Assembly: GCF_004010195.1 (NCBI RefSeq)
Contig: NC_057719.1
Coordinates: forward strand, 3,045,797-3,109,796
Reading direction: 5' to 3'
DNA from: Chiloscyllium plagiosum
Taxonomy: Eukaryota
DNA: 64,000 nt
Under the pieces are notes generated by a model. It made no database searches. It was given only the letters and a program-made list of their open reading frames with translations, and had not been told where the DNA came from. How positions within the stretch are numbered: the stretch's first letter is position 1; every line of letters begins with the position of its first letter. The translations under genes were made by a program, and so were the position numbers. Below, piece by piece: positions 4,932 to 62,769 of the stretch.

Positions 4932-5393
4932 GTTGTTGTGGTTCTGTTCGCCGAGCTGGAAGTTTTTGTTGCAAACGTTTCGTCCCCTGGCTAGGCGACA
5001 TCATCAGTGCTTGGGAGCCTCCTGCGAAGCGCTTCTTTGATGTTTCCTCCGCTGTTTATAGTGGCTTGTCCCTGCCGCTTCCGGTTGTCAGTTTCAGCTG
5101 TCCGCTGTAGTGGTTGGTATATTGGGTCCAGGTCGATGTGTTTGTTGATGGAGTTTGTGGATGAATGCCATGCCTCTAGGAATTCCTGGCTGTTCTCTGT
5201 CTGGCTTGCCCTATGGTAGTAGTGTTGTCCCAGTCGTATTCATGTTGCTTGTTGTCTGCGTGTGTGGCTACTAAGGATAGCTGTTCGTGTCGTTTCGTGG
5301 CTAGTTGATGTTCATGTATGCGGATTGTTAGCTGTCTTCCTGTTTGTCCTATATAGTGTTTTGTGCAGTCCTTGCATGGTATTTTGTACACTA
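4932..5393 (-). mobile_element. Penelope-like element 3' fragment (GIY-YIG endonuclease), family A
   Basis: ORF 5176-5391 YKIPCKDCTKHYIGQTGRQLTIRIHEH is a GIY-YIG motif; 11-bp TSD CCCTTTATTCT at 4921-4931 and 5394-5404. Confidence 0.92.
4971..5010 (-). ncRNA. Minimal type-I hammerhead ribozyme motif (family A)
   Basis: Minus strand gca-CTGATGA-T-GTCGCC-TAGCCA-GGGGAC-GAAAC-GTT-tgc: intact core, stem II with one mismatch, 3-bp stem I. Confidence 0.8.
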
Positions 5394-6039
5394 CCCTTTA
5401 TTCTCTCTTGCTGTCAGCCACCAATCTAAAATATTTTTAAATGCTGAACTGCTCTCCACTTCAATCAGTAACTCCCCCAGTGAATACCACAAATTTGTTT
5501 CCACAAAGTTGTTTTTCCACATTTAATCTTCCAGCTATCAAGTCATGTTGGCCTCAAATATCTGAATGTCACTAGTACAGGTGGATACTTACCAAAATTC
5601 TGACCTTGATGAAGATTGATTGATCAAGATATTTTAATGCATTGAATTGAGGACTCGAATTGGGAGGCTGTCATTAGCTCTTTCAGAATATGGGTCGAAT
5701 GTTTGTAGAGTGTTTAAAGTGCCCAGAAAGCTGTTGGAAATGTACAATCTGTGTAGTAAATGCATAATTGTAAGTGGCATTTAATCTTACACAAACGTGA
5801 TTTGCATTCCTGAGAGTTTGGAAGATTATGGGTTGATCTAATTGAGTCCTTAAAATAATGAAAGGGCTTGATTAGCCTGATACTATAAAAAGGTGGTGGA
5901 GGAAGCGAGGCCAGTGGAATCTTAAACTTGGAGCCGGGTCATTTCAGTGTGAAATCGTGCATTTCACACAGTGGTGTTGGGATTTGGAATTAACCATCTC
6001 CAAAAGTCAGTGGGTGCTTCAATCATTGATGTTTTCAAG

Positions 6040-6780
6040 ACCTTTACATTATATAGGCTGTGACAAGATTCAATCCAAGTCTAAGACTGAAGTGAAAAAA
6101 AACTGCACTGACATTCTTGCACAGTGCTGAATGAGTGCTGCACTGCTGGACGCCCTGTTTTTCAGTCGAGGTGATACACTGAAGTCTCCAAACAACGTTC
6201 TCTTTCCAGTGTTCCACACCCACGGCTCCTGGCATCAACTTCCTGTTCCAGAGGTCGCTGCCTGCTTTGGGCCTCAGGAGGTGCTGTGTAGCTAGGAGGA
6301 AGATGAGAAGGTACCCGGCCCTACTCTGTCAAGTCATACACGATCAGATTTGAAATATCTCTTCATTCCTTCATGGTTAGTTCCTGGAACACCCTTCCCA
6401 CCAGCACTGTAGGTGTCATTGCACCCCAGGGAATACAGCAGTTCAAGATAACAGCTCACCTCCACTTTTTCAAGAGCAATTAGGGATGGGCGATAAATGC
6501 TGGCCCAGCTAGTGACATCCACATCCCATGAACAAAAACAAAAAGGCCCATCTTCCCCTCTCTGAGGGACGTAAAAGACTCCTTGGCACTCTTTCCAAAC
6601 TCTTGTCCCTCAATCTAAACCACAAAATATATTCATTATTACATTGCTGTTTGTGGGAGCTTAAGTACCAATTAGCTGCTGCTTTTCCAACATTACAACT
6701 TCAAAGCACTTAGTTGGACAGATTGTGTTTTAAGACATGGTTGTTGTGAAGGCTGTATATAATTTAAAGTCTTCCCTTTT
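6040..6780 (+). mobile_element. Old Deu-domain SINE interrupted by a LINE 3' tail (about 6355-6540)
   Basis: GTGCTGAATGAGTGCTGCACTG..TTATTACATTGCTGTTTGTGGGAGCTT; insert ends GATGGGCGATAAATGCTGGCCCAG..CATCCCATGAAC. Confidence 0.6.
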
Positions 6781-7127
6781 TGTGGATTGATAAGATTGGC
6801 ATTATTAGGGGAAGTGGATCACGGGATATCATTCAGGAGTATAGGAAATAAGAGAGAAATTGACAATATCATTTGTGCATTAGGAAGAAAATGTTGGCAG
6901 TAGACATTCAATGGGCTGAAGGGCCTCTTGTGTACCATGTGATTCTATGAAACTCTGTGAGCATGGGAAAAGTAGCAGATTGCAAAGAGACATTTATGTA
7001 GCACCTTTAATGCAGTAAAACCTCCAAAGGCATTTCACAGGAACTTTACCAAACACAACCTGAGTGGTACAGATGACCAAGAGCTAACTTAAAGTTGCAG
7101 GTTCTAAGGAACATGATGGATAAGGTG

Positions 7128-7503
7128 GAGAGGTAGAACGGTTGAGTGAAGGAATTTCAGAACTTTGGGCAGCATCAGCTGATGTGGTGGGGGAGTGCTG
7201 AAATCTCGGAAAGTAGTAGGGCACACAAAACGTAAGCAACTGGAAGAAACAAACTAGTAAAGTAAAGGATGGCGAAAATCTGAAATTAAAAGACAAAATG
7301 CTGGAAATTGTCAGTGAGAGGTAGAACGGTTGAGTGAAGGAATTTCAGAACTTTGGGCAGCATCAGCTGATGTGGTGGGGGAGTGCTGAAATCTCGGAAA
7401 GTAGTAGGGCACACAAAATGTAAGCAACTGGAAGAAACAAACTAGTAAAGTAAAGGATGGCGAAAATCTGAAATCAAAAGACAAAATGCTGGAAATTGTC
7501 AGT
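7128..7503 (+). repeat. Tandem duplication, 2 x 188 bp
   Basis: Units 7128-7315 and 7316-7503 both start GAGAGGTAGAACGG; two substitutions seen. Confidence 0.95.
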
Positions 7504-7954
7504 GGGTCAGACACCATCTGTGGAAAGAGGAAGAGAGTTAATATTTCAGGTTAATCTTTTCAGACATCTTGTCACAGCTGGGAAACATTTGAGGCTCTTG
7601 TTTTTGGCAAATGTTAAAGGGAAACGTGGAAGATATGTGAAAGGGTTTTTGCAAATCCCTCCATGGTCTCACTCATCACTGTCTTTGAAATCACCTTTAG
7701 CACCAAAACCGTTTGAGATAATTATGTTAACTAATTCTGCCCGGTAGAGTATCATGGATTTTAATTTTCCCATTACCGGTGGTCATGCCATCAAATGCTT
7801 GGGCTCTAAACTCTGGAATTCCTTCCCTATAACTATTACCTCTCTACCCGTCACTATTCCTTTAACGTGCACCTTATATCAACCTCTTTAAGCAAGCTTA
7901 CGGTGCATCTGATTTCATAATCTCACATGTGCCTCAGTGTCACATTCTATTATG

Positions 7955-8506
7955 ATGTGGAGGTGCCAGTGTTGGACTGGGTTGAACAGTGTCAGAAGTC
8001 ACATGACACCAGGTTATTGTTTATTAGAAATCACAAGCTTTCTGTGCGCTGTTCCTTCATCAGGTGAAGTGGAGGGAATTGCACAGGCACGGAATTTATA
8101 GGTAGAAAGATAATGGTAAATAATTCCAGGTAATTAAGAGTGTCAAAAGATAGCAAGTGAAGGGGATGACCTATGAACTGACTAATTAAGGCAAAGAGAT
8201 AATTACAAATTATTAGTTAATCTGTTCCTAGGTCATCCCTTCATTTGCTATTCAGCTGTTGACACTTTACTCACACCGTCTGACACTTTTGATCAGCTGC
8301 AGAGACTTGTTATTCAGCCTGTCGACAGTCCACTCACACCATTTGTACTATCTTTTGGCAATTAATTACCTAGAATTATCTTACAATTAAATCTCTGCCA
8401 ATAAATTCTATGCCCATGCACTTCCTTCTACTTCACCTGAGCATTCCAAACCCTTGAAATTTCAAATAAACCTGTTGGACTATAACCTGGTGTCTCGGGA
8501 CCTCTG
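7955..8506. mobile_element. Penelope-like foldback element, family D
   Basis: Inverted ends (GTCAGAAGTCACATGACACCAGGTTAT / ATAACCTGGTGTCTCGGGACCTCTGAC); minus-strand CTGATGAAGGAAC..GAAAGCTT at 8035-8063; imperfect 13-bp TSD at 7942-7954 and 8507-8519. Confidence 0.75.
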
Positions 8507-8869
8507 ACATTCTGCTATGCATTCATCCTACAGAAATCCTTGTGATGTTTTAATGTATTAAATATTGTTACAACCAAGTTGAGAACAGTGAAAATGTTCC
8601 TCCCTTTCCATTGTTGAGTTTGGTAAGAAGGGAATTTGTTTTCTTTTTAAATATGTGATTATGTAATTCAATATGTGCACGAACGTGTATAACCATATAA
8701 AGAAATAAGCCAAACAGATCTCTCAAGTTAACAAAAATAGCGAATGACATTAATTTTATAACTAACTCAGATAAATTATAGTTATTAAAAAGCCAAAACC
8801 TGTCCTGTGTCCGTTGACATGCACAAACATACAAGCACACTAGAAACAGACAAACCTATAATGCTAGTT

Positions 8870-9092
8870 AAAAATTGAAAGAATTACAAATGCTGTAAAT
8901 CAGAAATAAAGCAGAAATTGCAAGAAAAACTCAGCAGGTTTGGCAGTATCTGTGGAGAGAAATTAGAGTTAACGTTTCAGGTCCAGTGACAAGTTCTGAG
9001 GAAGGGTCACTCAAAACGAAACGTTAACTCTGATTTCTCTCCACAGATGCCACCAGATCTGCTGAGCTTTTCCTGAAATTTTTGTTTCCGTT
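8870..9092. mobile_element. Penelope-like foldback mini-element, family C
   Basis: Inverted arms around 8990; CTGAGGAAGGGTC..GAAACGTT at 8996-9025 with damaged stem II; TSD TATA(A/C)TGCTAGTT at 8857-8869 and 9093-9105. Confidence 0.8.
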
Positions 9093-9941
9093 TATACTGC
9101 TAGTTGTTTCCAAGTGGGGCTTCAATCATGTGACAGGTGGCTATTGGCACTCAATGGTGACTTCTCTCTCCCATTGTCAAAGCTGTCATGGTGTCATTGA
9201 GACAGAAGGGGGTACTTAGCACCCTCTTTGCAAAGAGAGTTTGTGTTGACATTGTCCTTAGCAGTTTGTGTTGTGATTTTTTTTTCTGGGAATTTAAATG
9301 TGAGATTCTGCTGAGCAGCTGCCCTGGCCTGTGTCCATAAACTCAAATTCTGAGACTTCACAAAACTTGGCCAACTTGTTAGTCAGGTGACCTCTATGGC
9401 CATTTTTAAAATGGTAACTTTGCAGATCGAGTTGTTTTTAAAAGAAAACAAGGCATTATATCAGCTGATGAAAACTAAAGTGTTTTTATTGCACACGACA
9501 CACTATTGTGACAGTAGAAGTTGTTGTCCCTGATTTCCCTACAGAATAAAATTTATCAATCTCAGTTCCAAATGAAAAGGAACCAATGAAGCATCCACAA
9601 CTCTCTGGTGTACAGAGGTTCAAAGGTTTACAAGCCTCTGAGTTTCTTCTTATCTCAGAGCTAAATAATTCATTATCCTGATGCTGTGACTAGTTCTGAA
9701 TGCACCCTTCAATGTCGATATCTTTTGACTCCAAACACCCTTTACTGATCCATTCCTTTTGAAAAATAAACTACTTAATGAAATAGGGGCTTAGTCCTCA
9801 GTACAAACCCATTGACGCCATCTTCCAGTGACTATGTATCACTGAACCTCCTACTTCAATGATACGTTTCTATTCACACAGCCACCTTGGTAGATAGTCC
9901 AGTTCTGCTGACACTGGCTCAGAATCCTTCCACTCTATGTG

Positions 9942-10285
9942 GAATCATAGAATCCCTACAACATGGAACCAGGCCATTCGAGTCCACGCCAACCCTCTGA
10001 AGTGCTTCCTACCCAAACCCACCACATACATGTACCCTGCATTTCCCATGGTGAACCCACCTAGCCTGCACATCCCTGAACATTATGGGCAATTTAGCTT
10101 GGCCAATCCACCCTGATCTGCACATCTTTCGACTGTGGGAGGAAACCGGAACACCCGATGGAAGACCACGCAGACACGGGGAGAACATGCAAACTCCACA
10201 CGGACAGTTGCCCGGGACTGGAATCAAACCTGGGTCTCTAGCGCTGTGAGGTAGCAGTGCTAACCACTGAGCCATCAGGCTGCCC
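9942..10285 (-). mobile_element. HE1-type V-SINE (tRNA-derived)
   Basis: A box TGGCTCAGTGG, B box GGTTTGATTCC, V-domain GGAGTTTGCATGTTCTCCCCGTGTCTGCGTGG, HER1-like tail. Confidence 0.9.
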
Positions 10286-10715
10286 AGTTTGTCTGATCCC
10301 TACATTTCCAAAGGTTACATGTTGGGTAACTTTGCAGTGTTAAGAGACAACTTTCCACAATTGCTCCAAGGAATTTGTAGCAAAAATATCATTCATCGGT
10401 TGTGAGTATCAGTAGCTGGACCTAGCATTTATTGTTCTGACTAGTTTGCCCTTGAAAGGTTGGTGATAAGCTGCCTTCTCGAACCTCTGAGGGGTGTAGT
10501 GACATATAGTGCTGTTCAGAAAAGAGTCCCGGATTTTGACCAGATGATAGCCAAGGGACAGTGATATAATTTACCTTCTACCCCCAACCCCCAACCCCCA
10601 ACAGGAAGTTCCATATTCAGAAAGATTCCTGATGCTAACAATCTCTATACTCCTCCTTAGCAACAATCATTCTCTTTCTGCTGTTGATGAAGAGAAGCAC
10701 AGACTACTGAACTAT

Positions 10716-11446
10716 AGAATAGAATTGCAATTTATTGTCACGTATATTTTTACTTGAAACTACAGTGAAAGGTTTTATAAGCCATCCCTCCAAGCGCCTA
10801 CATCAGTGACAGAAGTCAGACATTATAAAGAAAGGTAAAATTAAGACAAAATTCATTACATACCAGCTAACAGCTCCTGGCAGGGGGAAAAGCTGATTAA
10901 GGAACGATGGAATATCCTGAAGATGCAGCTGGGATGAGACAGCCAAGCAGGGGTCGCTGAACACTAGGCTGGAAGCCTCCACTGAAGAAGACCGCCATTC
11001 TGGGCCGAGGCCTCCACTCCTGGAGGGACTGTCTGCCAGGCAGTTGGAATACCTGGATGCCAAAGATGAAGAAGACCACCACAACGGGATGAGATCTCCA
11101 TGCTGGGATGAGACCGCATTTCACCTCCTTCAGGCACCCGGGCCTAGCTGCAGCTGTGTAGTCTCGGCCTAGCTTAAGGGTCCGGGCCCTGGGAGTCAGG
11201 CCGGGACCTGGCCCTTGCTTACCGGGAGACCCCAGACTGGAGTGTGGCCATGTCTGTCTCAGCCTGGTGTTGATGCTGCTGCCATTGGAGGCCTCCTCCT
11301 TCACCTGCTTCTGGCTTAAAAGAAAATAAAGAAAAAATGAAAAAAATAAGCACAAAAGTGAAAAAAGGAGAAAGAATGCCGACAGGGGTGCAGATGAACT
11401 CTGGCCTCAACACCACCACCCCACCCACCAACTTTGCTGCCATCTT
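10716..11446 (-). mobile_element. Probable non-autonomous retroposon with a Rex1-like 3' tail
   Basis: Minus strand starts AAGATGGCAGC, has a pyrimidine-rich then GC-rich body, and ends TTTCACTGTA..GTGACAATAAAT..(ATTCT)n like the Rex tails at 1890-1945 and 44413-44470. Confidence 0.5.
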
Positions 11447-12669
11447 AAGAAAAAAATTCAACCTTGAATTTAATGAGAGGCGGTATTTGAGAAAAATGGG
11501 GAAGGGGTGAAGATAGGCTTGACATTTTTGGTGAGGAAGTGAGTCAGAAGCGTCGATCAATAAAAGTGCATGCATTTGCTGAAACTAGTGATCTGTCCTT
11601 AATGCTACTTTAATAAAGTCCTCCCATGGGACCAATTCCACTCTCCTTTATTAGGGATGACGTAAGGCCATTTAAACCATGTGACTAGCACTTGACAGTT
11701 AACACCCTACAATAAGAGTTTACTATCAGGCTTATCACTGCTCTCTTATTTCATATTCATTTTATTTTTGAATTCAGAAGCCAGCTGGGCTCAGTACCTT
11801 GGTGTGGAGCTGGTAGCATCACTGTTCAGTTTCTCTGTGCTCACTTGTTTCCCTATCTGGAAGCAGTTAGGTGTTGAACAGTGAAACTGTCTGTGTTATT
11901 GATTCACAGAGTTACTCTCTGGGTTGCACGAGCTGTGTTTCCTTGTGGTTTGCTTACAACAAGACAATGCTAACAGGGTCTATTTTTAGCCCAGAGCCCA
12001 GTTTAAAACAAGATTGTCATTAATCAACATGTTCAGAATTTCAGGGGCACGAGCAGCTGTGACAGCAACTGTCTCAACATAAAGACTTCAAATTGGACAG
12101 GATCATCACTGGAAATGCAACCTTTCCAAATGAAATTAGGCAGGTGCAGTTTATCTGGAGATTAATCCCATTAAGTAGACACTAATCATCTCAGTGAATG
12201 GAAAAGGCTTCATGTGATAAGATAGGGAGATGGCTGGCATTTTATCTCCCATCCCTCCCTCCACATCTGTGGGGATCTCATAGTGAAGCCCTTAGATTGT
12301 GATCCCATTTGCCAGTCAGGAGATATTTCAGATTCCTGTCATTGACAGGCTGCTAATTAAGTGCAAAACGGGCTATTTTTATACAAAGCGTAGGAGTAAC
12401 CTTGAGTGAAGGCCATACTGGAACATATAACTATACAGAACTGAATGTCCCAGACTGAGGCTAAATCTGACTCTGTGAAGTGGAAAATAGGTGACAATAC
12501 TGTGCATAACAGCTTCTTTGACCTTTCTCTCTGTTTTTAGTCACAGCGGCTTCAGTGGGGAAAGGTATGAAAGTGTGTTTTAGAGACAGAATTACCTCCA
12601 ATTGTCTGTGGAATAGGACTGACCATCCTAATACTTGCTGTATATTGCATGAACTGTCTGGAATCGGTG

Positions 12670-14620
12670 TAAACTAGGAGCAGAAATAGTCTATTCAGCC
12701 ACCCAAATCTGCTCCATCATTCAAAAAGATCATGGCTTATTTATTTGATTTTTCAGTTTCACATTTCTACCTAACTCTAATAACCATTGATTCCCCAGTC
12801 TAACAAAAATCTATCTGAGGCAGAAAGTTCCAAATCCACACAACCCCTTCTTTGAGGTAAACATTCTCCCCATCTCTGTCGTAAAACTGCAATCTTTAAT
12901 TTTCAAACAATGCTCTAACTCTGGAATCTCCCACAAGAGGAAATGTCTTTTCCATGTCTATCTCATCAAGACCATTCAGAACCTTTTATACTTTAATCAA
13001 GTCACCATACACTCTTCTGTACAATATTGGATACATGCCCAGCCCATCTAACCCTTTCTCATAAAACAAAGGCACGTTTGGGATGTCAAACTCATAAACC
13101 ACCTCCTCACCCCGCCCTCCAAACCACTTACATCCTTCCTTAAATAAGGAGACCAAAACATATGTGTTTGAGATGTGGTCTCATCAATGTTATGTGTAAA
13201 TGAAACATAACCTTTTTAATTCAATGTTCAAGTTATAGAGTCATAGAGCTGTACAGCTTGGAAACAGACCCTTTGGTCCAAATTATCCATGTCGACCAGA
13301 TACCTAAATTAATCTAGTCCCATTCAACAGAATTTGGCCCATCTCCCTCTAAACTCTTTCTATTCATATACCTATCCAGATACCTCTTGAATGCTGTAAT
13401 TGTACCAGTCTCCACCACCTCCTCTGGCAGCTCATTCCATACATGCACGACCCTCAGTCTGAAAAAGTTGCCCCTTAGCTCCCTTTTAACTCTTTCCCCT
13501 CTCACCTTAAACCTATGCCTTCTAGTTTTGGACTCCCATACCCTGGGGAAAAGACCTTGGCTATTCACCCTATCCATTCCCCTCATGATTTTACAAACCC
13601 TTACAAGATCACTTCTCAGCCTCTAATGCTCCAATGCCCCAGCCTATTCAGCCTCTTCCTACGACTGAAACCCTCCATCCCAAGTATCATCATAATAAAG
13701 ATAGCATTCCATTGACATTTTTAATTACTTGCTAGACCTGTATACCAATGTTTTGCGGCTCATGCACTTGAATGCCTACATTCCTCTGCACTGTGGAACT
13801 CTGCTGTCATTTTCTTTTTAAGTAATACTCTGCTTTTCCATTCTTCCTGGCAAAGTGAACAACTTCACATCTGTCCACATTCTCCTTTGCCCTCTCACTC
13901 AAATGTTCACCTTGATCCTTGTGACCTCGTCACAACATTGTTTCCCTTTTATCTTTGTGTCACTTGCAATTTTATTTACTATATCTTCACTTCCTTCACG
14001 TAAGTCATTGATATTAATTGTTAAAATGTTGACAGCCCAGTACCGTGCAACTCCACCTGTCAATTTCTATGCAAAAATATCTATTTCTGCATAGTCTCTT
14101 TTTCCTTTCAGGCAGCCAATCTACTCTCCATATTGATATATTACCCCCTATATCATAAACTCCAACTTTAAGAACCTTTAATTTGACACCTTGTGAAATG
14201 TCTTCTGGAAATCAAATCAATGAGCTCCCCTTTATCCACAGCACATATTTTTCTTCAAAAAAATCCAATAAATTGGTTAAACATGAATTTCCTTTCACAA
14301 AACCACGCCTACTTCTCCAATTACCTTGCGTTTATCTAAGTGCCCAGCTATAACATCCTTAATTTTCAATTCTAACATCTTCCATCTGACAGATATCCAG
14401 CAACTGGTAAGAATTTCCTGTTCCCTGCCTCCAATTCCTTCTTGAGCACGTAAGTTATATTTGCTTCTTTCCAGTCTGATGAAACGTTTCCTGAATCAAG
14501 AAAATTTTAGAAAAATAGCACAAACTCATCTATTACATCATCAGCCACCACTTTTAAGATCCTTGGTTCAAGTTCATCTGGGTCTAGAGACTTGTCAGTC
14601 CCCAGCTCCATCAGTTTGCT
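12670..14620 (-). mobile_element. Old CR1 LINE with a younger HER1-like 3' fragment nested at about 13235-13690
   Basis: ORF 13314-13586 RGMDRVNSQGLFPRV..FKVRGER..VWNELPEEVV; ORF 14507-14791 ends DKSLDPDELEPRILKVVA. Confidence 0.85.
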
Positions 14621-14631
14621 TAGTAATTGTT

Positions 14632-15720
14632 TGATTGGTTGATTGATAATTCTCACATGGACTGAAGTACACTGAAAAGTGTTGTTTTGCGTGCTATACG
14701 AGCAGATTGTGCCATACAAAGTCAGGGTAGCAGAACAGAGTGCAGAATACAGTGTTACATCCACAGAGAATGTGTAGAGAGAGATCAACATTAATGTTTG
14801 ACAGGTCCATTCAGAAGTCTAATAATGACAGTGAAGAAGCTGTTCTTGAATCTGTTCGCATATGTATTCAAAGCTTTATATCCGCTGCCTGACAGAAGGG
14901 GATGGAAGAGAGCATAACTGGGGTGAGAGGGCTCTTTGATGATGTTGAGATCAGAGTGGTGCTGGAAAAGCACAGCAGGTCATGCAGCATCCGAGGAGCA
15001 GGAAAATCGATGTTTTGGGGGATAGGTGGGTAGGGAGATTGGCAGGCAGGACAGGTCATGGGGACGGTTCTGAGCTGGAAGGTTGGAACTGAGGTAAGCT
15101 GCTGGGAGGGGAAATGAGGAAACTGGTGAAGTCCACCTTGATGCCCTGGGGTTGAAGTGTTCCGAGGTGGAAGATGAGGCGTCTTCCTCCAGGCGTCGGG
15201 TGGTGAGGGAGTGGAGGTGGAAGAGGCCCAGGACCTGCATGTCTTCGGCAGAGTGGGAGGGGAAGTTGAAATGTTGGGCCACGGATTGGTTGATTGGTGC
15301 GGGTGTCCCAGAGATGTTCCCTGAAGTGCTCCGTGAGGAGGCGTCCAGTCTCCCCAGTGTAGAGGAGGCTGCATCGGGAGCATTGGATACAGTAAGTGAC
15401 ATTGGTGGATGTGCAGATGAATGATGATGTTGGTTGCTTTCCTAAGGCAGTGGGAAGTATAGATGGAGTCAGTGGTTGGAAGGCGTTTTGCTTGCTGGAC
15501 TGGGCTGCGTTCATAACTCTCTGTAGTTTCTTGTGGTCTTGGGAAGAGCAGTTCCCATACCACGCTGTGACGCATCCAGATAGGATGCTCTCTATGGTGC
15601 ATCTATAAGAATTGGTAAGAGTCCTTGTGGACATGTTGAAATTCTTTAACTTCCTGACGAAGAAGAGAAGTTGTTGTGCTTTCTTGGCTGTCACATCGAC
15701 ATGGGTGGGCCAGGACGACT
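14632..15720 (-). mobile_element. Rex1/Babar LINE 3' fragment interrupted by a Penelope-like element
   Basis: KKAQQLLFFVRKLK..YRCTIESILSGCVTAWYGNCS; NIIKEPSHPSYALFHPLLSG..RFKNSFF. Confidence 0.9.
14948..15421 (-). mobile_element. Penelope-like element (GIY-YIG region plus terminal repeat), family B
   Basis: FICTSTNVTYCIQCSRCSLLYTGETGRLLTEHFREHL; LIFHLGTLQPQGI; 11-bp TSD TGATGATGTTG at 14937-14947 and 15422-15432. Confidence 0.92.
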
Positions 15721-15723
15721 GCT

Positions 15724-17820: not shown

Positions 17821-17894
17821 CAAATTGCATTTGTTGATGAAGTAACAGAGAAGTTTGTGGAAAGGAATGCTCTGATGTTGTAGACAGGGATCTT

Positions 17895-25940: not shown

Positions 25941-25999
25941 TGTTTCTCTCTCCACAGATGATGCCAGACCTGCTGAGTTTCTCCAGCAGTTCCTCATCG

Positions 26000-51397: not shown

Positions 51398-52296
51398 GTT
51401 GCAGGTCTGCCTGAACTGCTCGCAAAACAAAACTTTTAGACCATAAGACATAGCAGCAGAAGTTAGGCCATTAGCCCATTGAATCTGCTCTGTCATTCAA
51501 TCATGGTTGATAAGTTTCTCAATCCTATTCTCCTACTTTCTTTCCGTAACCCTTGATCCCCATTACAATCAAGAACCTTATTATCTCCACCTTAAATATA
51601 CTCAATGACCTGGTCTCCACAGCCTTCTGTGGCAGTGAATTCCATAGATTCATCTGGCTGAAGAAGTTTCTCCTTATCTCCATTCTAAAATGGTCTTCCC
51701 TTTACTCTAAGTATTGCGGGCTGAGAAAGGGGGTTGGATTATAAGAATATGATAGAAAGTAAAGGCCAACATGCAGTAGTCATTCTAATTGTTTTTTATG
51801 AGTGGGAACACTTTCTCCCACTCCTCTTCTCATTCTTCTTCTCCTCACCAAGGAGAACAGTCCCACCTTCTTCAATCTATCCTCATCACTGAAGTTTCTC
51901 ATCCCTGGAACCATTCTTGTACATTGCTTCTGTAGAATCCACATCTTGCCTGTAATGTGGCTCCCACAACTTTACAGAATACACTAGTTGTGATCTAATA
52001 AGTGTCTTGTAGAAGTTCAACATCAGTTGCTTGCTCTTGCACCCCATGCCCGTATCAATAAAACTGACACACTGATTTCTTTGTTCACTGATCTCTTCAT
52101 CTGTTCTACCACTTTCAATGACCTGTGCACATACACACCCATCTGAGTTGAGAAGTCACACCAACACTCCTTTTTGTGTCTCGCTGTGTTAGTGAACAAA
52201 CCTTGTCTATGTTAGACTCAGATTGACACAAAATACAGATCAGGATTCTCTTCTTAACAGAACTTACTATTTCATTATAAATAAACAAATTTCATT

Positions 52297-53100
52297 ACAA
52301 ATGTGAGGTGCTGCGTTTTGGGAAAGGAAAATCAGAGCTGGACTTATACACTTAATGGTAAGGTCCTAGGGAGTGTTGCTGAACAAAGAGACCTTGGAGT
52401 GCAGGTTCATCCTCCTTGAAAGTGGAGTCGCTGGTAGACAGGATAGTGAAGAAGGTGTTTGGTATGTTTTCCTTTATTGGTCAGAGTACTGAGTACAGGA
52501 GTTGGGAGGTCACGTTATGGCTGTACCGGACATTGGTTAGGCCACTGTTGGAATATTGCGTACAATTCTCATTTCCTTCCTATCGGAAGGATGTTATGAA
52601 ACTTGAAAGGGTTCAGAAAAGATTTACAAGGATGTTGCCAGGATTGGAGGATTTGAGCTATAGGGAGAGGTTGAATAAGCTGAGGCTATTTTTCCTGGAG
52701 TGTCAGAGGATGAGGGGTGACCTTATAGAGGTTTACAAAATCATGGGGGGCATGGATAGGATAAATAGACCAAGTCTTTTCCCTGGAATGGGGGAGTCCA
52801 GAACTAGAGGGCATAGGTTTCGGGTGAGAGGGGAAAGATATAAAAGAGACCTAAGGGGCAACATTTTCCCGCAGAGGGTGGTGCGTGTATGGATGAGCTG
52901 CTAGAGGAAGTGGTGGAGGCTGATACAATTGCAACATTTAAAAGGCATTTGGATGGGTATCTGAATAGGAAGGATTTGGAGGGATATGGGCCCGGTGCTG
53001 GCAGGTGGGACAAGATTGGGTTGGGATATCTGGTCGGCATGGCCGGATTGGACCGAAGGGTCTGTTTCCATGCTGTACAGCTCTAAGTCTCTATGACTCT
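52297..53100 (+). mobile_element. CR1 (HER1-like) 3' fragment
   Basis: ORF 52416-52904 LYRTLVRPLLEYCVQF..RVQKRFTRMLPGL..RTRGHRFRVRGER. Confidence 0.95.
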
Positions 53101-53189
53101 AAATAGATTCTAACTGAAGATAAACCATATACCTATAGCTCTACTCATTAAGAGTCTAAACTTCTTATAAATCTACCCACTACACACAC

Positions 53190-53330
53190 AATGATCTCTC
53201 TGCCTATAAATTCTGTGTTTGCACGCTTCCCTCCACTTCACCTGATGAAGGAGCAGCATTCCAAATGCTTGTTCATTTCAAATAAACCTGTTGGATTATA
53301 ACCTGGTGTTGTGGGACTTCTGACTTTGAC
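53190..53330 (+). mobile_element. Family D terminal repeat with a decayed hammerhead
   Basis: CTGATGAAGGAGCAGCATTCCAAATGCTT from 53242; AAATAAACCTGTTGGATTATAACCTGGTGTTGTG. Confidence 0.75.
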
Positions 53331-53914
53331 AACACACACCTACAGAATGATGCAAGAAACTGGGAAGTTTAATGGTTCCTGTCCATAAGGTTTTCTGAAA
53401 TGATTCCTTTGATGATTAGAGTACTGCTTGTCAGTCTTCCTCCTTTCACTAGTTTTCAGAACAAAAGCAGCTCCTTCCCTTTTAGACATCTGACGGCTTC
53501 TGACCTGAACATTCACACTCACAAACTGTTCAGCTAACTAGGAGTCAACCACTCAGCTGCTGGCAAGCTGGAGATCTTTATCATTGATAGCTGTCTTCAT
53601 TCCACATCCCGGTCAGCTACTTGTTTCTGGCCAAATCACGATTCATACACATCCCTTTTGGATCCAGTTCATCTGCAACTAGACTTCACCCCTAAAGAAG
53701 AAAAAAAACAAAAGAACTATGGAAGCTGGAAATCAGAAACAAAAACAAAAATTGCTGGAGAAACTCAGCTGGTCCAGCAGCATCTGTGGAGAGAAGGCAG
53801 AGTTAACAGGTTCAGTGAACCTTCTTCAGAACATAGACTTTACAACACTGTTTGAGACAAGTAGAAGACCTGCTTAAGTGATTACAGTAGTCTGGCTTAG
53901 TAATAAATTAATTC

Positions 53915-54550
53915 CAAAGGGAATTCACAAAAGCAAGAGTAGTATCTTGGATATATTGTAGGGGAAGGTCAGGTGTTGCCAAGCACAATGAACATGAAGG
54001 CTCTAACAGGGCATTCCCCGCTCCTAAAACGAAATGAGAAATCACAAGGTTTTTAGGATTGTGTGAGTTTTCCAGAAGTTTAGGCATAATTGCAGCGCAA
54101 CACAAATTTGTTAAGGAAATAAGTAAAAGTGATGCAGTCAGCAGAATACCAAGCAGCCTTTGAGACAATGAAGGCAATTTTAACAAATAGGTCCATCAGA
54201 CCACCTCTGAATTTCATAGACCTGTCAAAATGGCAATTGCTGCTAATGTCTGGGGGTTGACTTGATCCAGGGTGATGAGTTGGAGATAGGAAAGTCAGTT
54301 GGTTACTTCTCCAAGAAATTAACTTTCAAAGGAGGTATAATAAAAGTAAAGACTTTCAGATTATTATTGGTTCTTCAATACCTGTCTGTCCAACACGGTA
54401 ACAAAAAACATGAATATTCACTAATCCTGGTATTCATTGCAAAGTTTAAAACTTGAACAAATATTCAGATGGAGTCTTTTGTTTTAACTATTGACGTAAA
54501 GAATATTCCCCATTTCTGGAAAAGGTAATATAATCACTGAGGCATTGTAA
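53915..54550 (+). pseudogene. Gypsy/Ty3 LTR-retrotransposon pol remnant (RT thumb and RNase H)
   Basis: Manual translation across frameshifts: YLGYIVGEGQVLP..FPAPKTK*EITRFLGLC..QAAFETMKAIL..LIQGDELEIGKSVGYFSKKL. Confidence 0.85.
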
Positions 54551-54610
54551 AATGCTCTCGAATCAAAGTTTTAAGGAATACCGAGATTGCTAACAGAAGA
54601 GAAAAGACAA

Positions 54611-54959
54611 TTATTTTTCATTCATTCACGGGATGAGAGTATCGCTGGCCAGGCCAGCATTTATTGTCCATCCCTAATTACCCAGAGAGCATTGCTGTGG
54701 GTCTGGAGTCACATGTAGGCCAGACCAGGTAAGGAAGGCAGCTTCCTTCCCTAAAGGACATTAGTGAACCAGGTGGTTTTTCCAACAATTGGCAACGGAT
54801 TCATGATCATCAATAGACTCTTAATTCCAAATTTTAAAAAAAATTGACTAAACATTCCACCATCGCCTGTGGCAGGATTCAAACCTGGGTCCCCAAGACA
54901 TTACCTGGGTGTCTGGATTAACAGTCCAGAGATAATACCACTTGGCCATCACCTCCCCC
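54611..54959 (-). mobile_element. tRNA-derived SINE, second family
   Basis: Minus head GGGGGAGGTGATGGCCAAGTGGTATTATC..GGTTTGAATCC. Confidence 0.88.
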
Positions 54960-55574
54960 CAAAATAGTTTCATGTTTTGGTTTTTTGTGTATCACAAATC
55001 TTGCAATGAAATGTAGTTTTGAAATGGCGTCTCACTTTTTTGAATAGAGGCATATAAGGACACTGCTTCATTTTATTTTTTGCATTTTTAATCATAGGCT
55101 GAACTGGAAAATTTTGTTTTACAGCAAAAGAGGAGGAATTGCTGTACTTTTAAAAAGCAAGTCACTGAAATTTATTGTGGGTGGTGTTTGCACTCTTGCT
55201 TTATTCAAGCAGTGGAGGATGGTGTTGGTAGATGGCCTGGATCCAAGGGTTTGTGTACAAAGTGATATTCGACTGGCAACAGGTTGTTGATTGGCTTATG
55301 GAATTGCACAATTGTGGATGCCAAAGCTGACAACTATCCGATTGGATCCTGTGTACTGGATCAGCTTGAGCATGTGAACGCTAAGCCTTGGACTGCTGCA
55401 ATGGGGCAGATAGTGTGCATTTCCCTCTTCTGAAAAATATCTAAAACTCAAAGAAAGCCAGTTTATTGATCTACTGCTAAATACTGTAAGTTATAGCATT
55501 TAACCATTAACTGAGAATCTTTGCAGTCGATGTACCAATTACTTCTGCCTCTTTTGAAGAACTGAGAGATCTGA

Positions 55575-56005
55575 AGGAAAAGACCAGAGAACTAGGCTGA
55601 GACTTTTTTCATTGGAGTGTAGGAGGTTGAGAGGTGACGTTACAGAAGTTTATAAAATAATTAGTTATATACATAGAGTTAATGGTAGTTATCTTTTCCT
55701 GAGGATGGGGGATTTCAAGACTGGAGGCACCTTCTTAAAGTGAGAGGAGAGAGATTTAAAAATATACGAGGGGCAAATGTTTTTACACAGAGGGTGGTTT
55801 GTGTGTGGAATGAACTTCCAGAGGAAGTTGAGGATGCAGGTACAATTACAACGTTTAAAAGATATTTGGATAAGTACATGATTAGGAAAGACTTGGAGGG
55901 ATATGGACCAGGGGCAAGTAGGTGGGACTGGTTTAATTTGGCATTATGATCAGCATGGACTGGTTAGACCTAAGGGTCTATTTCCATGCTGTATTACTCT
56001 ATGAC
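55575..56005 (+). mobile_element. CR1 (HER1-like) 3' fragment
   Basis: ORF 55740-55949 FTQRVVCVWNELPEEV..FKRYLDKYM. Confidence 0.9.
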
Positions 56006-56038
56006 TAACTGAAGGACTTGGTAAATAAAAGGAACACC

Positions 56039-56742
56039 TGCAAGGTTTGTGAAGGTTTGTAGCTCAGGTTGAGGTTTAGGGTGTAGGTTTGCCTGCTGAG
56101 CTGTAAGTTTGATATCCAAACGTTTCATTACTTGGCTAGGTAACATCATCAGTGGCGACCTCCAAGTGAAGTGAAGCTGTTGTCTCCTACTTTCTATTTA
56201 TATCTTTCTCCTGGATAGGGTTCCTGGGGTTTGTGGTGATGTCATTTCCTGTTCGTTTTCTGAGGGGTTGATAGATGGTATCTAGATCTATGTGTTTGTT
56301 TATGGTGTTGTGGTTGGAGTGCCAGGCCTCTAGGAATTCTCTGGCATGTCTTTGCTTAGCCTGTCCCAGGATAGATATGTTGTCCCAGTCGAAATGGTGT
56401 TTTTTTTCCTCCAAGTGTAGGGCTACGAGGGAGAGAGGGTCGTGTCTTTTCCTGGGACAGGCTAAGCAAAGACATGCCAGAGAATTCCTAGAGGCCTGGC
56501 ACTCCAACCACAACACCATAAACAAACACATAGATCTAGATACCATCTATCAACCCCTCAGAAAACGAACAGGAAATGACATCACCACAAACTCCAGGAA
56601 CCCCATCCAGGACAAACATATAAATAGAAAGCAGGAGACAACAGCTTTGCTTCACTTGGAGGTCGCCACTGATGATGTTACCTAGCCAGGTAACGAAACG
56701 TCTGGATATCAAACCTACAACTCAGCAAGTAAACCTACACCC
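56039..56742. mobile_element. Family A Penelope-like foldback (about 297-bp inverted arms, 78-bp spacer)
   Basis: Arms about 56075-56371 and 56450-56746; encodes the GIY-YIG C-terminal region HHFDWDNISILGQAKQRHAREFLEAWHS; 13-bp duplication TAAAAGGAACACC at 56026-56038 and 56743-56755. Confidence 0.93.
56666..56705 (+). ncRNA. Minimal type-I hammerhead ribozyme motif (family A), best-preserved copy; mirror copy on the minus strand at 56116-56155
   Basis: cca-CTGATGA-T-GTTACC-TAGCCA-GGTAAC-GAAAC-GTC-tgg: perfect 6-bp stem II, predicted cleavage after GUC (56702). Confidence 0.87.
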
Positions 56743-57397
56743 TAAAAGGAACACCATTGAATCCCAAGGTGCTATTAAACAGTTCCCCAGTTTTTTCCAT
56801 CTACCCTTAGAACCAATTGTTTTTGTCTGTCTGTATCTTTTTTTTATGTGGGTGTAGGAAGCTATAACCCGTAAAGTTATGTTAGCATTCATAGTTGTTT
56901 GCCTGCTCTTAGAATCTATTAATCTGAAGTCAGCAGTAGGTTTTGTTAAGTGTAATCAACTTTGCCTGTGTTTTCCATTAACTCAGGTCCATTAACCGGT
57001 AATTTGGGGACTTGGTGCACTTTAACAGCATTTCTAAGTCTATGTGATGACTCTGGCAAAAGCAGGGATTGATCTCCATTGCACTAGCCCCGTAAAATGT
57101 GACACTTTACCCCAGCTTTACCTCAATAGCACTCCTCTCTTGGTTCCTGAGCTATCTCGAAACTAGCAGACTGCTTGCTCCGGACCTAGTATTGGAAGAG
57201 CAAAATGCTCCTCCAAATAAATATTGTGAAGTCGAAGTAACGTGGGACACAGTGTTAGAAGAAGAGGATTTGAAGACTGAGATGAAGAGGAATGCAGAGG
57301 TTGGTGAATCTTTAAAATTCCTGACCCAAAAAGCGGTAGAAGCTCAGTCATTGAGTACACTCAAGGGATCAATAGATTGCTAGATATTAAAGGTATT

Positions 57398-57860
57398 TGT
57401 TGCCAGGGTTGGAGGATTTGAGCTATAGGGAGAAGTGGAATAGATTCAGGCTGTTTTCCCTGGAGTGTCAGAGGATGAGGGTGACCTTATAGAGCTTTAT
57501 AAAATCATGAGGGGCATGGATAGGGTAAATAGACAAGGTATTTTCCCTGAGTTGGGGGAGTCCAGAACTAGAGGGCATAGGTTTAGGGTGAGAGAGGAAA
57601 GATATAAAAGGGACCTAAGGGGCAGCTTTTTCACGCAGAGGGTGGTGTGTATATAGAATGGGCTGCCCGAGGAAGTGGTGGAGGCTGGTACAATTGCAAC
57701 ATTTAAAAGGCACCTGGATGGGTATATGAATAGGAAGGGTTTGGAGGGATATGGGCTGGGTGCTGGCAGGTGGGACTAGATTGGGTTGGGAATCTGGTCG
57801 GCATGGACAAGTTGGACCGAAGGGTCTGTTTCCATGCTGTACACCTCTATGACTTGATAA
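57398..57860 (+). mobile_element. CR1 (HER1-like) 3' fragment nested in an older CR1 tail
   Basis: GDLIELYKIMRGMDRVNRQGIFP..FFTQRVVCI. Confidence 0.92.
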
Positions 57861-58134
57861 TTCTATATCAAGGGGTATGAAAGTAGTGTGGGAAAACAGC
57901 GTTGAGGTAGAAGATTAACCAGTGAAGCGCTAAATGGCCTCCTACTGCTCTGATTTCCCACTGTCTTCATTCTCTGCCATGAACATTGCTCACTAGTCAG
58001 TGACTGCATGCCTCTCAATGGCAACCATCAGAGGACTAAACTTGATTCTTCACAACCTTAGTCTCATGTTTGACTTAAGATGGACCTTTGAGTGTAAATT
58101 CAAAGCATATCGCAGTTCCTTTAATATGTCACCA

Positions 58135-58325
58135 ATTCTTCAGTGTCACTTGGTCAAAATCCTGGAATTCCCTCCCTAAGGGCATTGTGGGTCAACCCAC
58201 AGCACATGGACTGCAGCGGTTCAAGAAGGCAGCTCACCCCCACCTTCTCAAGGGAGCAACTAGGGATGGGCAGTAAATGCTGGGCCCAGCCAGTGATGCC
58301 CATGTCCCACTGGTGAATAGAAAAA
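58135..58325 (+). mobile_element. LINE 3' tail (partner of the second SINE family)
   Basis: SKSWNSLPKGIVG..LQRFKKAAHPHLLKG; GATGGGCAGTAAATGCTGG. Confidence 0.8.
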
Positions 58326-58339
58326 GAATTACTAAAAAT

Positions 58340-58770
58340 AACTGCTTATTTCCACATCCATAAGGTTGTTCAACTCTGTCCCACTTCAGTTCATCTGCTG
58401 CTAAAACCTTTATTCATGGCATTCTTGCTTTTTGAGTTGACTGTTGAGTGAACGTTTGGACAGTCTCCAAAGGTCTGCCTTCCATATACTTAAGGTCATC
58501 AAAAATTCTGTATTTCAAATTCCCATCCTTGTTTCCAAATTTCTTCATGTTATCACTGCACCCCCCACAATATGTTATCTCTTCCAGCCTCAGACCTGTC
58601 TAAGATTTCACACTTCTCCAATCCCGACCTCCTAAGAAGTTCTGATTTTTATCACTACATCAATGGTGATTGTTCCTTGGGCCATAAACACTGGAATTTT
58701 ATCCCTAAATCTCTCCCATTCCCAACTCCCTCCCCTCCTTTAAACACTTCTCAAAACATGCCTTTTTGAT
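58340..58770 (+). mobile_element. Old L2-like LINE C-terminal remnant
   Basis: AYFHI..SSSAAKTFIH..FQIPILV..KHWNFIP, resembling the L2 ORF2 C-terminus. Confidence 0.55.
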
Positions 58771-59000
58771 CTTAAGTAGGAAGAGCAAATTACGTCTGTG
58801 TTTACAAAAACAGAAATTGCTGGAAAAACTCAGCAGGTCTGACAGCATGTGTGGAGAGAAATCAGGGTTGACTGACACTTCCTCATTACTGTTTGTTTTT
58901 TTTTGTTCCCCAGACTAAGAAGGGCAATGCGAAGGCCCTGATATCAAAAGAATTGTGTAATTATGTTTGTGTAAATGGAAGGAGTATAGTGAACAAAAAC

Positions 59001-59346
59001 TGGGAGAAGTGATGGTTTAGTGGTATTATCACAGGGCAGTTAATCTAGAGATCCACATAATGTTCTGGGGATATGGGTTCGAATACCCACCATGGGATGA
59101 ATTTGAATCCAATAAAAATCTGAAATTAAGAGTCTCATGATGATCATGAATCCATTAACGATTGTTGGGAAAACCCCCATCTGATTCATTAATGTTCTTC
59201 AGAGAAGGAAACTGCTGTCCTTACCTGGTCTGGCCTACATGTGACTCCAGACCCTCAGTAATGTGGTTGACTCTTAGCAGTGTCCTGGGATGGCCAATAA
59301 ATGCTGGCCTCGCCAGTGGCCCCCTCACCCTGTGAATGAATTTTTT
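59001..59346 (+). mobile_element. tRNA-derived SINE, second family
   Basis: TGGTTTAGTGGTATTATC..GGGTTCGAATAC..AATAAATGCTGGCC..TGAATGAA. Confidence 0.85.
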
Positions 59347-59503
59347 TAAAACTGAAAGTAAAAATTGCTCTGATGGGGAAAATGACATGGTCACAATGAT
59401 AGGAATGCGGCTGAAGCCAAAACAGGACTGGACACTTAACATCCCAGTTTATAAGACTTTCAGCAGATACAGTGTGAGTGAAAAGGGGAGCAGATGTTGA
59501 TTG

Positions 59504-59811
59504 TAGATTATATTACAGTGTGGAAACAGGCCCTTCGGCCCAACAAGTCCACACCGACCCGCCGAAGCGAAACCCACCCATACTCCTACATTTACCCCTT
59601 ACCTAACACTACGGGCAATTTAGTATGGCCGATTCACCTGGCCCTGCACATCTTTGGACTGTGGGAGGAAACCGGAGCACCCGGAGGAAACCCACGCAGA
59701 CACGGGGAGAACGTGCAAACTCCACACAGTCAGTCGCCTGAGGCAGGAATTGAACCCGGGTCTCTGGCGCTGTGAGGCAGCAGTGCTAACCACTGTGCCA
59801 CCGTGCCGCCC
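59504..59811 (-). mobile_element. HE1-type V-SINE, young full-length copy
   Basis: A box TGGCACAGTGG, B box GGTTCAATTCC, V-domain. Confidence 0.95.
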
Positions 59812-60647
59812 ACTAATGTAGCAGCCTTGGTCAAAGGTAGTATCGTCATCCTTGAATGAGATGCAGTCGTGGGGACTGAGACAACTTTTCCCAGAATCCC
59901 TCTCATCGCTACCCTCTGATACATTCTCAAATATGTGACCACATAAACACTTACATGTCCAACCCATTTACATTCCAACATACTAACACACACAGATATT
60001 CACATAGAGACACAACTATACATCAGGCATACAAAGACTAACTGGGCTTACCTCATTGACAGAAATACTTGTTCTTCTCATTACTGGAGAATAAAAATAA
60101 CATGGATATTTGAGCATTGACTGGTTTTCACTACCTAAGTTCAGACCTAATTGGCTCTTCCTACTTCAGTTCTGTATAATCTTCCCATTTGTCCAGATGG
60201 TGAAATCAATTGTAGTCTCCAGGGTGGCGAGACAGCATAATAAAGCCCTTGGGTTAATGTGAAGCGTGTGATAAATGAACACTAAAGGTGTCTGCTCCTA
60301 GTGGCTATCGTCAATTGAAACAGTTTATTATGGGAATGGAACACCTACAGGCATGGTGACAGATGGGTGATTAAATTCTTCTGTAACCTGCCAAACTCAC
60401 GCCATCTCATCTCTCTGCTTCATCTATTGAACCAGGCACTTTAAGACAACTATACCAAGACGAACTGTCTCCCAATCCTTCCCTAGGAAGTCTTACACTC
60501 AGAAAGTACCTTCTTAAATCTCTGAGGAACCTCTTGAAACGTCCTTTATTATGGATGATTTTTCAATCCACAGAAGTTCACAAACGAGAGAAATGTGAGG
60601 CAGAGAAGTGGTGAACTGATCTTCAGGATGTATTGAATATTAGTTTG

Positions 60648-60735
60648 GGACAAAGTCACATGACACCAGGTTGTAGTTCAACAGGTTTATTTCAAATCAC
60701 AAGCTTTTGCAGCGCTGCTCCTTTGTCAGGTGAAC
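60648..60735 (-). mobile_element. Family D terminal-repeat fragment
   Basis: GTCACATGACACCAGGTTGTAGTTCAACAGGTTTATTT..AAGCTTTTGCAGCGCTGCTCCTTTGTCAGG. Confidence 0.75.
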
Positions 60736-61483
60736 CTGGCTGGCCTGTAGAGTTTCTCCGGCAATTTCTGCTCATTTGAGGGAAGGTTGCCGTTTATCAG
60801 GGTGTGCTGGAACCTTCAATCCCAGGGAAAGCTCAGACTCAGTCCAGGGCCATGCCAACAGTCAGGTATCTGCTTGGATTGGGCACAGTCAGGGGATTTG
60901 TGCAGTTAAAGTCCACCCAGGCTGATATCCCGTCAGCAAGTCCCACTTTATTTACACATGGAGAATCCTTGACATTGATCCAGCTCCCTCAGAGCCAGCT
61001 CTCAGAGTGAACAGAACCACTGACAGTCCAGTTTATTTTTTTTAAAACAATACAGTTTACAAACAGTTAACATTAACAAGCTGTATACAAGAAACAGCAA
61101 TTTACAAGGGAGAGAAAAGGCAAAGCCAGAACTCAAACCAGTTTTCAGGGAAAGGAGGGCAAGCCTCAAATCCCACTTTCAGTCATCACAAAAGGAGCAG
61201 TAACAAATACATACAAGACAGTCTAACTAGATAAGAAACAATGCATATAACACAGACTTCCCCAGCAAGCCACTCGTCCCTCCCACCTTCCGGCTACTCT
61301 AAGGCAGCCTGCCCCATGTCCCTTCCATCTCTCGGTTCGCCCCTACGCCCCTTCCGGCTCTCGGTCTGTCCCATGCCCTTTCCGGGTCTCAGTTCGCACT
61401 GACACGCCTTCTGGCCACCTGGGGGACAGCCTGTCCTGCTTCCCCAACCACCTCCCCCCCCCTCCCCCAGGATGACAGCAATC

Positions 61484-62769
61484 CAATCCTCCCACTTCCT
61501 CCAACCAAAGGAGTAGCCATGGGCACCCGCATGGCCCTAGCTATGCCTGCCTCTTCGTAGGATATGTGGAACAGTCCATCTTCCGCAGCTACACTGCACC
61601 ACCCCCCACCTTTTCCTCTGCTACATTGATGATTGTATCGGCGCTACCTCATGCTCCCACGAGGAGGTTGAACAGTTCATCNNNNNNNNNNNNNNNNNNN
61701 NNNNNNNNNNNNNNNNNNNNNNNNNNNNNNNNNNNNNNNNNNNNNNNNNNNNNNNNNNNNNNNNNNNNNNNNNNNNNNNNNNNNNNNNNNNNNNNNNNNN
61801 NNNNNNNNNNNNNNNNNNNNNNNNNNNNNNNNNNNNNNNNNNNNNNNNNNNNNNNNNNNNNNNNNNNNNNNNNNNNNNNNNNNNNNNNNNNNNNNNNNNN
61901 NNNNNNNNNNNNNNNNNNNNNNNNNNNNNNNNNNNNNNNNNNNNNNNNNNNNNNNNNNNNNNNNNNNNNNNNNNNNNNNNNNNNNNNNNNNNNNNNNNNN
62001 NNNNNNNNNNNNNNNNNNNNNNNNNNNNNNNNNNNNNNNNNNNNNNNNNNNNNNNNNNNNNNNNNNNNNNNNNNNNNNNNNNNNNNNNNNNNNNNNNNNN
62101 NNNNNNNNNNNNNNNNNNNNNNNNNNNNNNNNNNNNNNNNNNNNNNNNNNNNNNNNNNNNNNNNNNNNNNNNNNNNNNNNNNNNNNNNNNNNNNNNNNNN
62201 NNNNNNNNNNNNNNNNNNNNNNNNNNNNNNNNNNNNNNNNNNNNNNNNNNNNNNNNNNNNNNNNNNNNNNNNNNNNNNNNNNNNNNNNNNNNNNNNNNNN
62301 NNNNNNNNNNNNNNNNNNNNNNNNNNNNNNNNNNNNNNNNNNNNNNNNNNNNNNNNNNNNNNNNNNNNNNNNNNNNNNNNNNNNNNNNNNNNNNNNNNNN
62401 NNNNNNNNNNNNNNNNNNNNNNNNNNNNNNNNNNNNNNNNNNNNNNNNNNNNNNNNNNNNNNNNNNNNNNNNNNNNNNNNNNNNNNNNNGCAATCTTCTT
62501 CCCAACCTCTCCGCCCCCACCCGCACTCCGACCTATCACCCTCACCTTAACCTCCTTCCACCTGTCGCATTCCCAATGTCCCTCCCTCAAGTCCGTCCTC
62601 TCTACCTTTTATCTTAGCCTGCTTGGCACATCCTCCTCATTCGTGAAGAAGGGCTTATGCCCGAAACGTCGATTCTCCTTCTCCTTGGATGCTGCCTGAC
62701 CTGCTGCGCTTTTCCAGCAACACATTTTTAAGCTCTGATCTCCAGCATCTGCAGTTCTCACTTTCTCCT
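61484..62769 (+). mobile_element. Penelope-like element, family B (RT core, gap, then 3' terminal repeat)
   Basis: With frameshifts: SSHFLQ/KGVAMGTRM/PSYACLFVGYVEQSIFRSY/HLFLCYIDDCIG; after the gap GTGAAGAAGGGCTTATGCCCGAAACGTC (hammerhead with C3 mutated); flanking AGCAATC at 61477-61483 and 62770-62776. Confidence 0.85.
61682..62490. other. Assembly gap (N run)
   Basis: Continuous n characters. Confidence 1.

Follow-up and report, generated by a model that had tools for sequence, protein, structure and literature searches.

Minimal type-I hammerhead ribozymes in metazoan Penelope-like elements are a class known since 2014, with a published consensus of CUGANGAH, G10.1-C11.1, a palindromic 15.2-16.2 and a short helix I (PMC4209133). 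Comparison of this class with the repeats in a stretch of the genome of the shark Chiloscyllium plagiosum (64,000 nucleotides, contig NC_057719.1, positions 3,045,797 to 3,109,796; hereafter the window) confirms that the latter contain minimal type-I hammerhead sequences, located in the pseudo-long-terminal-repeat (pseudo-LTR) ends of one Poseidon-type family (A) and three putative Neptune-type families (B, C and D). The likeness extends from the motif itself (CUGANGA plus one unpaired base, G10.1-C11.1, a loopless palindrome and a helix I of 2-5 bp) to its genomic setting, with several families in each genome, copies that are for the most part truncated and solo, and opposite-strand pairs 100-700 bp apart (PMC4209133). 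The promoter-anchored 5' ends described below are not mentioned in the portion of the main text of that paper used for the comparison. The corresponding part of its alignment holds no cartilaginous fish, and two of its supplements give no match to 'shark', 'Callorhinchus' or 'Leucoraja'.

Two further systems provide insights on how such elements insert. For the Poseidon element PAc of Anolis carolinensis, reverse transcriptase (RT) is described to start internally, with extension of both strands and with uncut RNA as the main template (Frangieh et al. 2024, PMC11167929). The RT start ~100 nt behind the ribozyme, the optional tail and the priming on both strands are features that our copies appear to share. 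The open reading frame (ORF) of PAc starts inside the ribozyme, and this is matched in family A, where all 25 loci (L145-L169) have an ATG at core +6, at the beginning of stem II, from which a short conserved frame runs; the "extra nucleotide" of the family A core is part of this ATG. Family D differs from PAc, as its ORF begins 121 nt behind the core. The pseudo-LTRs of the rotifer Adineta vaga (Arkhipova et al. 2013, PMC3846280) resemble ours in a putative TATA and initiator, head-to-head inverted ends, palindromic junctions and an optional tail.

The motifs clearly exceed chance expectation. A strict descriptor (CUGANGA, stem II of at least 3 bp, GAAA NN U H) matched the window 11 times, against a mean of 0.155 (maximum 2) in 200 dinucleotide shuffles, and matched a 664-kb genome sample (the window, 100 kb on each side and 40 spaced 10-kb stretches) 62 times, against 0-3 per shuffle (20 shuffles). 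A sequence-only reading of the window had proposed about 20 motifs from four families; a described motif or remnant is present at all 21 of its coordinates (with minus-strand sites quoted by their plus-strand left end), and the count was low rather than high, since family searches reveal 38 remnants (A 5, B 11, C 11, D 11) plus a variant at 19571. Ten sites had been called intact. Every core base is indeed kept in all ten, but only five of them (4974, 32977, 33986, 34028 and 56669) also keep the palindrome, the G-C closure and stem I. The unpaired base between 9 and 10.1 and the G10.1-C11.1 pair are the consensus of all four families, from which 25906 (A-U), 42962 and 56119 (both G-U) deviate. 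Family D is represented in the window only by copies with altered cores. Across the genome sample, all bases of the CUGANGA...GAAA...UH core are kept in 71 of 244 copies, and core and palindrome together in only 52.

The palindromic 15.1-16.1 without loop 3 (ACGU in families A-C, AGCU in D) is present in 43 of the 62 strict matches. In contrast to the canonical type-I hammerhead of the Rfam models, the hairpin stem III is absent and no core has a stem III loop; stem III can therefore form only between two motifs, and not in a monomer. The Rfam search that the sequence-only reading had recommended, when applied to the window, gave 21 matches at E values up to 10 and no hammerhead among them. 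The microRNA-like matches in this set were rejected, as they are the head-to-head hairpins of hammerhead copies.

In each of the four families, the motif lies in the pseudo-LTR of an element with RT and a GIY-YIG endonuclease. Clade assignments are based on motifs, on tblastn between loci and on the linker criterion that separates Penelope-like clades in PMC8557442, and not on a tree. Family A presents RT and GIY-YIG without a cysteine linker in three loci (L150, L153 and L161), and in L150 the reading frame passes directly from the RT thumb into GIY-YIG. The stop codon of the family A ORF lies within the stem II loop (seen in the insertion at 56075..56746, core 56669-56702); with the ATG at the core, the ribozyme thus overlaps both ends of the ORF. 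Family B shows a zinc-finger linker and GIY-YIG ~220 nt upstream of the core in L031. In young elements of family B, N runs take the place of coding sequence (window ~61680-62490; L001, L031-L033), so that no complete family B ORF is readable. Families C and D had been left without a coding partner in the window; such partners are now found elsewhere in the genome. For C, seven loci (L043, L129, L134, L138, L139, L143 and L144) carry endonuclease remnants on the same strand, 140-300 nt upstream. For D, an RT ORF with YVDD lies between two D ribozymes in L026, with its start 121 nt after the 5' core (Pfam RVT_1, E 0.0044, below the cut-off), and endonuclease pieces are found in L012 and L013. 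The CxnCxxC zinc-finger-like linker was seen in B (L031) and C (L139 and L129), while D offers only RT and endonuclease pieces. Pfam recognized none of the endonuclease fragments. The family D element of L026 (1474-3991) has tandem pseudo-LTRs, an internally deleted RT ORF and a LINE (long interspersed element) fragment directly upstream of its 5' ribozyme. Shuffles, published consensus and coding partners all agree with the original assignment to minimal type-I hammerheads of Penelope-like elements. The four families are not fully distinct, as B and C share the downstream tail and hence are relatives.

The argument that stem II differs between families and yet stays paired, and thus reflects a selected RNA fold, holds within family A and more weakly in C. 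Three of nine pairs in A vary on both sides, with a covariation of 0.329 against 0.177 in shuffled alignments (reached by 0 of 500), and the compensatory changes fall in stem I (G-C, U-A, C-G) and stem II. For C, two of nine pairs vary on both sides, a count reached by 429 of 500 shuffles and a score reached by 3 of 500, with G-C to A-U changes in stem II; in both families the copies are related and the counts are not independent events. The stem II GTTACC/GGTAAC attributed to family A is not constant, as most of the listed genome copies carry GTCACC/GGGGAC with an internal mismatch. Stem I of family B has only 2 bp, and its predicted probability is at most 0.013 in four B copies. Nearest-neighbor energies place the dimer fold ~3-24 kcal/mol above the best alternative, a figure of little weight because tertiary contacts are not modeled. 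Selection on the hammerhead fold would have acted in the active master elements.

The 5' ends of the short copies suggest how they arose. Junctions were taken from 237 of the 244 copies, the remainder having N or a sequence edge at this point. In families B, C and D together, 79 of 216 copies have their first base 1-10 nt ahead of the core, whereas the next 30 nt upstream hold 12 starts (B 50 versus 6, n=120; C 17 versus 4, n=56; D 12 versus 2, n=40). The peaks are at -4 in B, -4 to -2 in C and -8 in D, with initiator-like words at these positions. Long copies present TATAAA at -33 in C and at -38 in D, that is, 29-30 nt before the peaks at -4 and -8. Family D shows an additional base at this junction. 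Among the first 100 of 3,149 matches, the base before -8, when not the consensus C, is G in 66, T in 23 and A in 11 (hand tally). Among the short copies it is G in 64 of 80, and in 20 of 34 once long copies and cases explained by a neighboring arm are set aside (p 1.6e-4 against 0.28). In LINE-1 (L1), full-length insertions described in PMC9341517 bear an untemplated 5' G beside a pyrimidine/purine initiator, which is read as the reverse-transcribed cap; the extra junction G of family D resembles it, and by analogy may have the same origin in a Penelope family.

The pile-up at the 5' ends, the TATAAA spacing in C and D, and the extra G in D argue that uncut, promoter-started short RNAs are the likely template. 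We infer that the pseudo-LTR promoter of each family fires just upstream of the hammerhead, that the pile-up would mark the Pol II start, and that the extra G would be the cap read by RT. Reverse transcription would begin ~80-130 nt behind the hammerhead and copy the RNA to its 5' end. In the anole, RT begins ~100 nt behind the ribozyme on a template that is uncut, so that even the shortest insertions would carry the motif. We consider it probable that the copies are abundant for this reason: a promoter immediately before the hammerhead and an RT start shortly behind it yield short, capped, uncut RNAs, and these give insertions of ~100 nt.

The same 5' ends could be produced if SINE-like (short interspersed element-like) non-autonomous masters that start at the hammerhead spread alone, in which case the pile-up would be a fixed end and not a series of fresh starts. 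The B, C and D copies of ~100 nt with a common 5' end fit this proposal, and PMC4209133 lists SINE among its keywords and reports SINE-like tandem motifs in D. willistoni. Nonetheless, every subfamily includes long copies, which carry the 3' untranslated region (UTR) and endonuclease, as well as short ones, and the core variant is the same in both; the TATA, moreover, lies outside the short copy, which would be unable to restart at the same base; we regard such masters as improbable. Slightly less probable still is that the pile-up marks no transcript end but a C-rich 3' UTR at which RT stops or alignments break off artificially. The upstream regions of B and C are C-rich, and B subfamilies have in common only the last four bases ahead of the core, so that alignments could stop at -4. 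Yet what lies upstream of the short copies is unrelated DNA or an inverted arm and not the UTR of another subfamily, and family D is not C-rich, peaks at -8 rather than -4, follows the distance to its own TATA and has the excess of G.

Several observations weigh against promoter-started, capped and uncut templates as the source of the short copies. The 5' ends derive from local alignments to 4-9 trimmed reference copies per family and may carry an error of a few bases. In family B, the TATA-like word (TTTATCT) is weak and the excess of G is modest (G 8, A 2, while C 12 and T 4 are subfamily consensus; hand tally), and family C has no excess of G at -5 (3 of 25). Family A departs from the pattern, as 18 of 21 copies extend more than 40 nt upstream, past the TATA at -50 to -53. 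In D. virilis, the Penelope promoter is TATA-less and an intron precedes the ribozyme. Starts at the cleavage site itself number 5 of 23 in B (expected 1.9, p 0.04 uncorrected), 0 of 23 in C and 1 of 9 in D; a pile-up there is weak at most, and the slight excess in B makes some cleaved templates possible. Start site, cap and cleavage are all predicted here from the DNA sequence.

The neighborhood of the copies adds to the picture of insertion. Of the 237 copies, 104 have a head-to-head neighbor, 3 a same-sense one and 2 a tail-to-tail one. Vertebrate non-LTR retrozymes, described from genomes that include one chondrichthyan, are likewise hammerhead-bearing, non-autonomous Penelope-like derivatives (bioRxiv 10.64898/2026.07.22.740005). 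These form head-to-tail tandem arrays, whereas the copies here are solo or head-to-head, and with so few same-sense upstream neighbors we rejected identity with retrozymes. Three head-to-head pairs combine different families, B-C twice and C-D once (window 32920-33112; L079:3670-3755; L074:4431-4519). These mixed pairs suggest that two RNAs of separate origin were primed at a single site, although one copy may instead have inserted later into the head of the other. In Adineta vaga, palindromes were read as self-priming on an antisense template (PMC3846280); here the sense-strand starts, the extra G and the three mixed pairs point instead to two sense RNAs. In the head-to-head pairs, both target strands would have been primed and the two cDNA ends joined.

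Any activity of the ribozyme would come from dimers paired through their palindromes, with the help of the protein of the element. This leads to a tentative proposal, to which we give no better than a minor chance: the Neptune-type hammerhead would form the first ~35 nt of the capped pseudo-LTR transcript, with stem I at +1, and cleavage triggered by dimer formation or protein would be a self-decapping switch between mRNA and template (in family A it would also remove the start codon). The roughly one million remnants would then record capped, uncut RNAs primed pairwise on both strands of one cut.

The abundance of the motif is high. Exact cores in the 3.56-Gb genome number at least 92,857 (B 58,974; D 18,505; A 15,140; and C 238, the last with a very strict pattern), and reversed-pattern controls gave 0. 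The spaced sample (40 x 10 kb) holds 29 strict motifs in 386 kb, or 75 per Mb, equivalent to ~267,000 if genome-wide, and 329 family remnants per Mb. The suggestion that the density of the window might hold throughout the genome is correct in that genome-wide density is high, but the window (11 strict motifs in 63 kb) has about twice the average. Published copy numbers are 4,000 for coelacanth and 9,000 for Xenopus (Cervera and De la Pena 2014, PMC4209133); the shark genome has ~10x more, though the descriptors differ.

Numbers of this size invite the view, put forward in the sequence-only reading, that shark introns bear a large load of active self-cleavage sites and that the dispersed motifs cut host pre-mRNA. 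The extrapolated strict motifs, the exact cores and the fraction of copies with core and palindrome speak for it, and cleavage of such motifs as dimers is considered likely in a 2019 review. We nonetheless hold this to be very unlikely, because complete cores are few, close same-strand partners are lacking and published activity is weak. A monomer, having no loop, is unable to form stem III, and among 77 core-reaching copies a same-strand partner lies within 100 nt in none and within 300 nt in two. An opposite-strand partner within 100 nt is found for 20 of the 77, burying the motif in a blocking hairpin; antisense close pairs fold into hairpins of -106 to -118 kcal/mol. The low stem I probability of the four B copies argues in the same direction. 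In vitro, no monomer cleavage and low dimer cleavage have been published, and for the anole PMC11167929 describes that cleavage needs the protein and that RNA-seq shows no ends at the cut site. No host exon was found in the window, where the 150 longest of its 338 non-repeat reading frames gave no Pfam match. The effect of the copies on host RNA is likely small, and the dispersed copies are relics in decay and, by prediction, mostly inactive in host RNA.

What is added to the known class is a genome exceeding the published copy numbers, the tally of the cap-like G and the mixed-family pairs. The junctions offer a fossil read-out on what the Penelope hammerhead is for. The templates were apparently capped and uncut; this agrees with the 2024 in vitro work and argues against cleavage and circularization as the usual route of insertion. 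The analysis also specifies the individual bases at which promoter, cap and cleavage can be tested directly: -4 in B and C, -8 in D, and position 17. Our literature search found neither capped Penelope templates nor, beyond the tandem retrozymes of one chondrichthyan genome, such motifs in sharks.

Table 1 Hammerhead-bearing copies and related remnants in the window (positions counted from its first nucleotide; remnants in the last three rows were absent from the sequence-only reading and span 7476..60731)
Feature	Position	Strand	Remarks
Family C copy, damaged	3711..3819	+	core 3735
Family A (Poseidon-type) 3' remnant	4933..5307	-	endonuclease C-terminus, TATA, hammerhead 4974-5007 (intact core and palindrome; stem II with one G-G mismatch), tail
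Family D copy, damaged	8019..8101	-	core 8035-8063
Family C pair, head-to-head	8908..9087	.	core 8996 +, stem II broken
Neptune-type GIY-YIG endonuclease remnant	15107..15442	-	family B tail remnant downstream, 14930-15025 -
Family B short copy, damaged	15772..15854	-	core 15825-15852
B/C-like variant	19571..19598	+	core bases all kept, palindrome broken, inverted arm precedes
Family D pair, head-to-head	20431..20600	.	cores 20511 - and 20520 +, one core change each; + arm begins 8 nt before core; folds into one long hairpin
Family C hammerhead	25906..25935	+	intact core and palindrome; stem I of 5 bp; stem II opening A-U
Family C copy, longer, damaged	31064..31255	-	core 31114-31144, part of 3' UTR
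Family C short copy, damaged	31528..31623	+	core 31530
Family B hammerhead	32977..33004	-	intact, 2-bp stem I, head-to-head with family C remnant 33049-33112 +
Family B short-copy pair, head-to-head	33963..34112	.	cores 33986-34013 - and 34028-34055 +; each arm begins 4 nt before core; fold is a single 58-bp hairpin
Family A pair, head-to-head	42791..43036	.	core 42832-42865 -, palindrome broken (ACAU); core 42962-42995 +, G-U pairs in stem II
Family B pair, head-to-head	50628..50773	.	core 50689-50716 +, all core bases, no first stem I pair; - arm damaged
Family D copy, damaged	53204..53319	+	core 53242; copy begins at own TATA box
Family A inverted insertion with endonuclease C-terminus	56075..56746	.	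cores 56119-56152 - and 56669-56702 + (fully intact)
Family B element	61476..62760	+	RT remnant (YIDD), 808-base N run, 3' UTR, damaged core 62643, tail
Further family B remnants	18644, 27717, 44115/44149
Further family C remnants	7476, 29603, 53741, 58806
Further family D remnants	8460, 16842/16922, 41158, 44556/44651, 60652

Other repeats lie between these copies. About half of the window matches other stretches of the genome, and much of this consists of LINE RT fragments. A tandem duplication of 188 nt (7128-7503, 99% identity) overlaps a family C tail. A dispersed repeat of ~220 nt, which we take to be SINE-like, is present in 6-7 copies (10069, 27203, 32571, 34701, 35579, 39143 and 59595). 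The segment at 62790-63900 is without matches in the sampled loci and holds several overlapping open frames of 105-143 amino acids with a short repeated peptide and no Pfam match.

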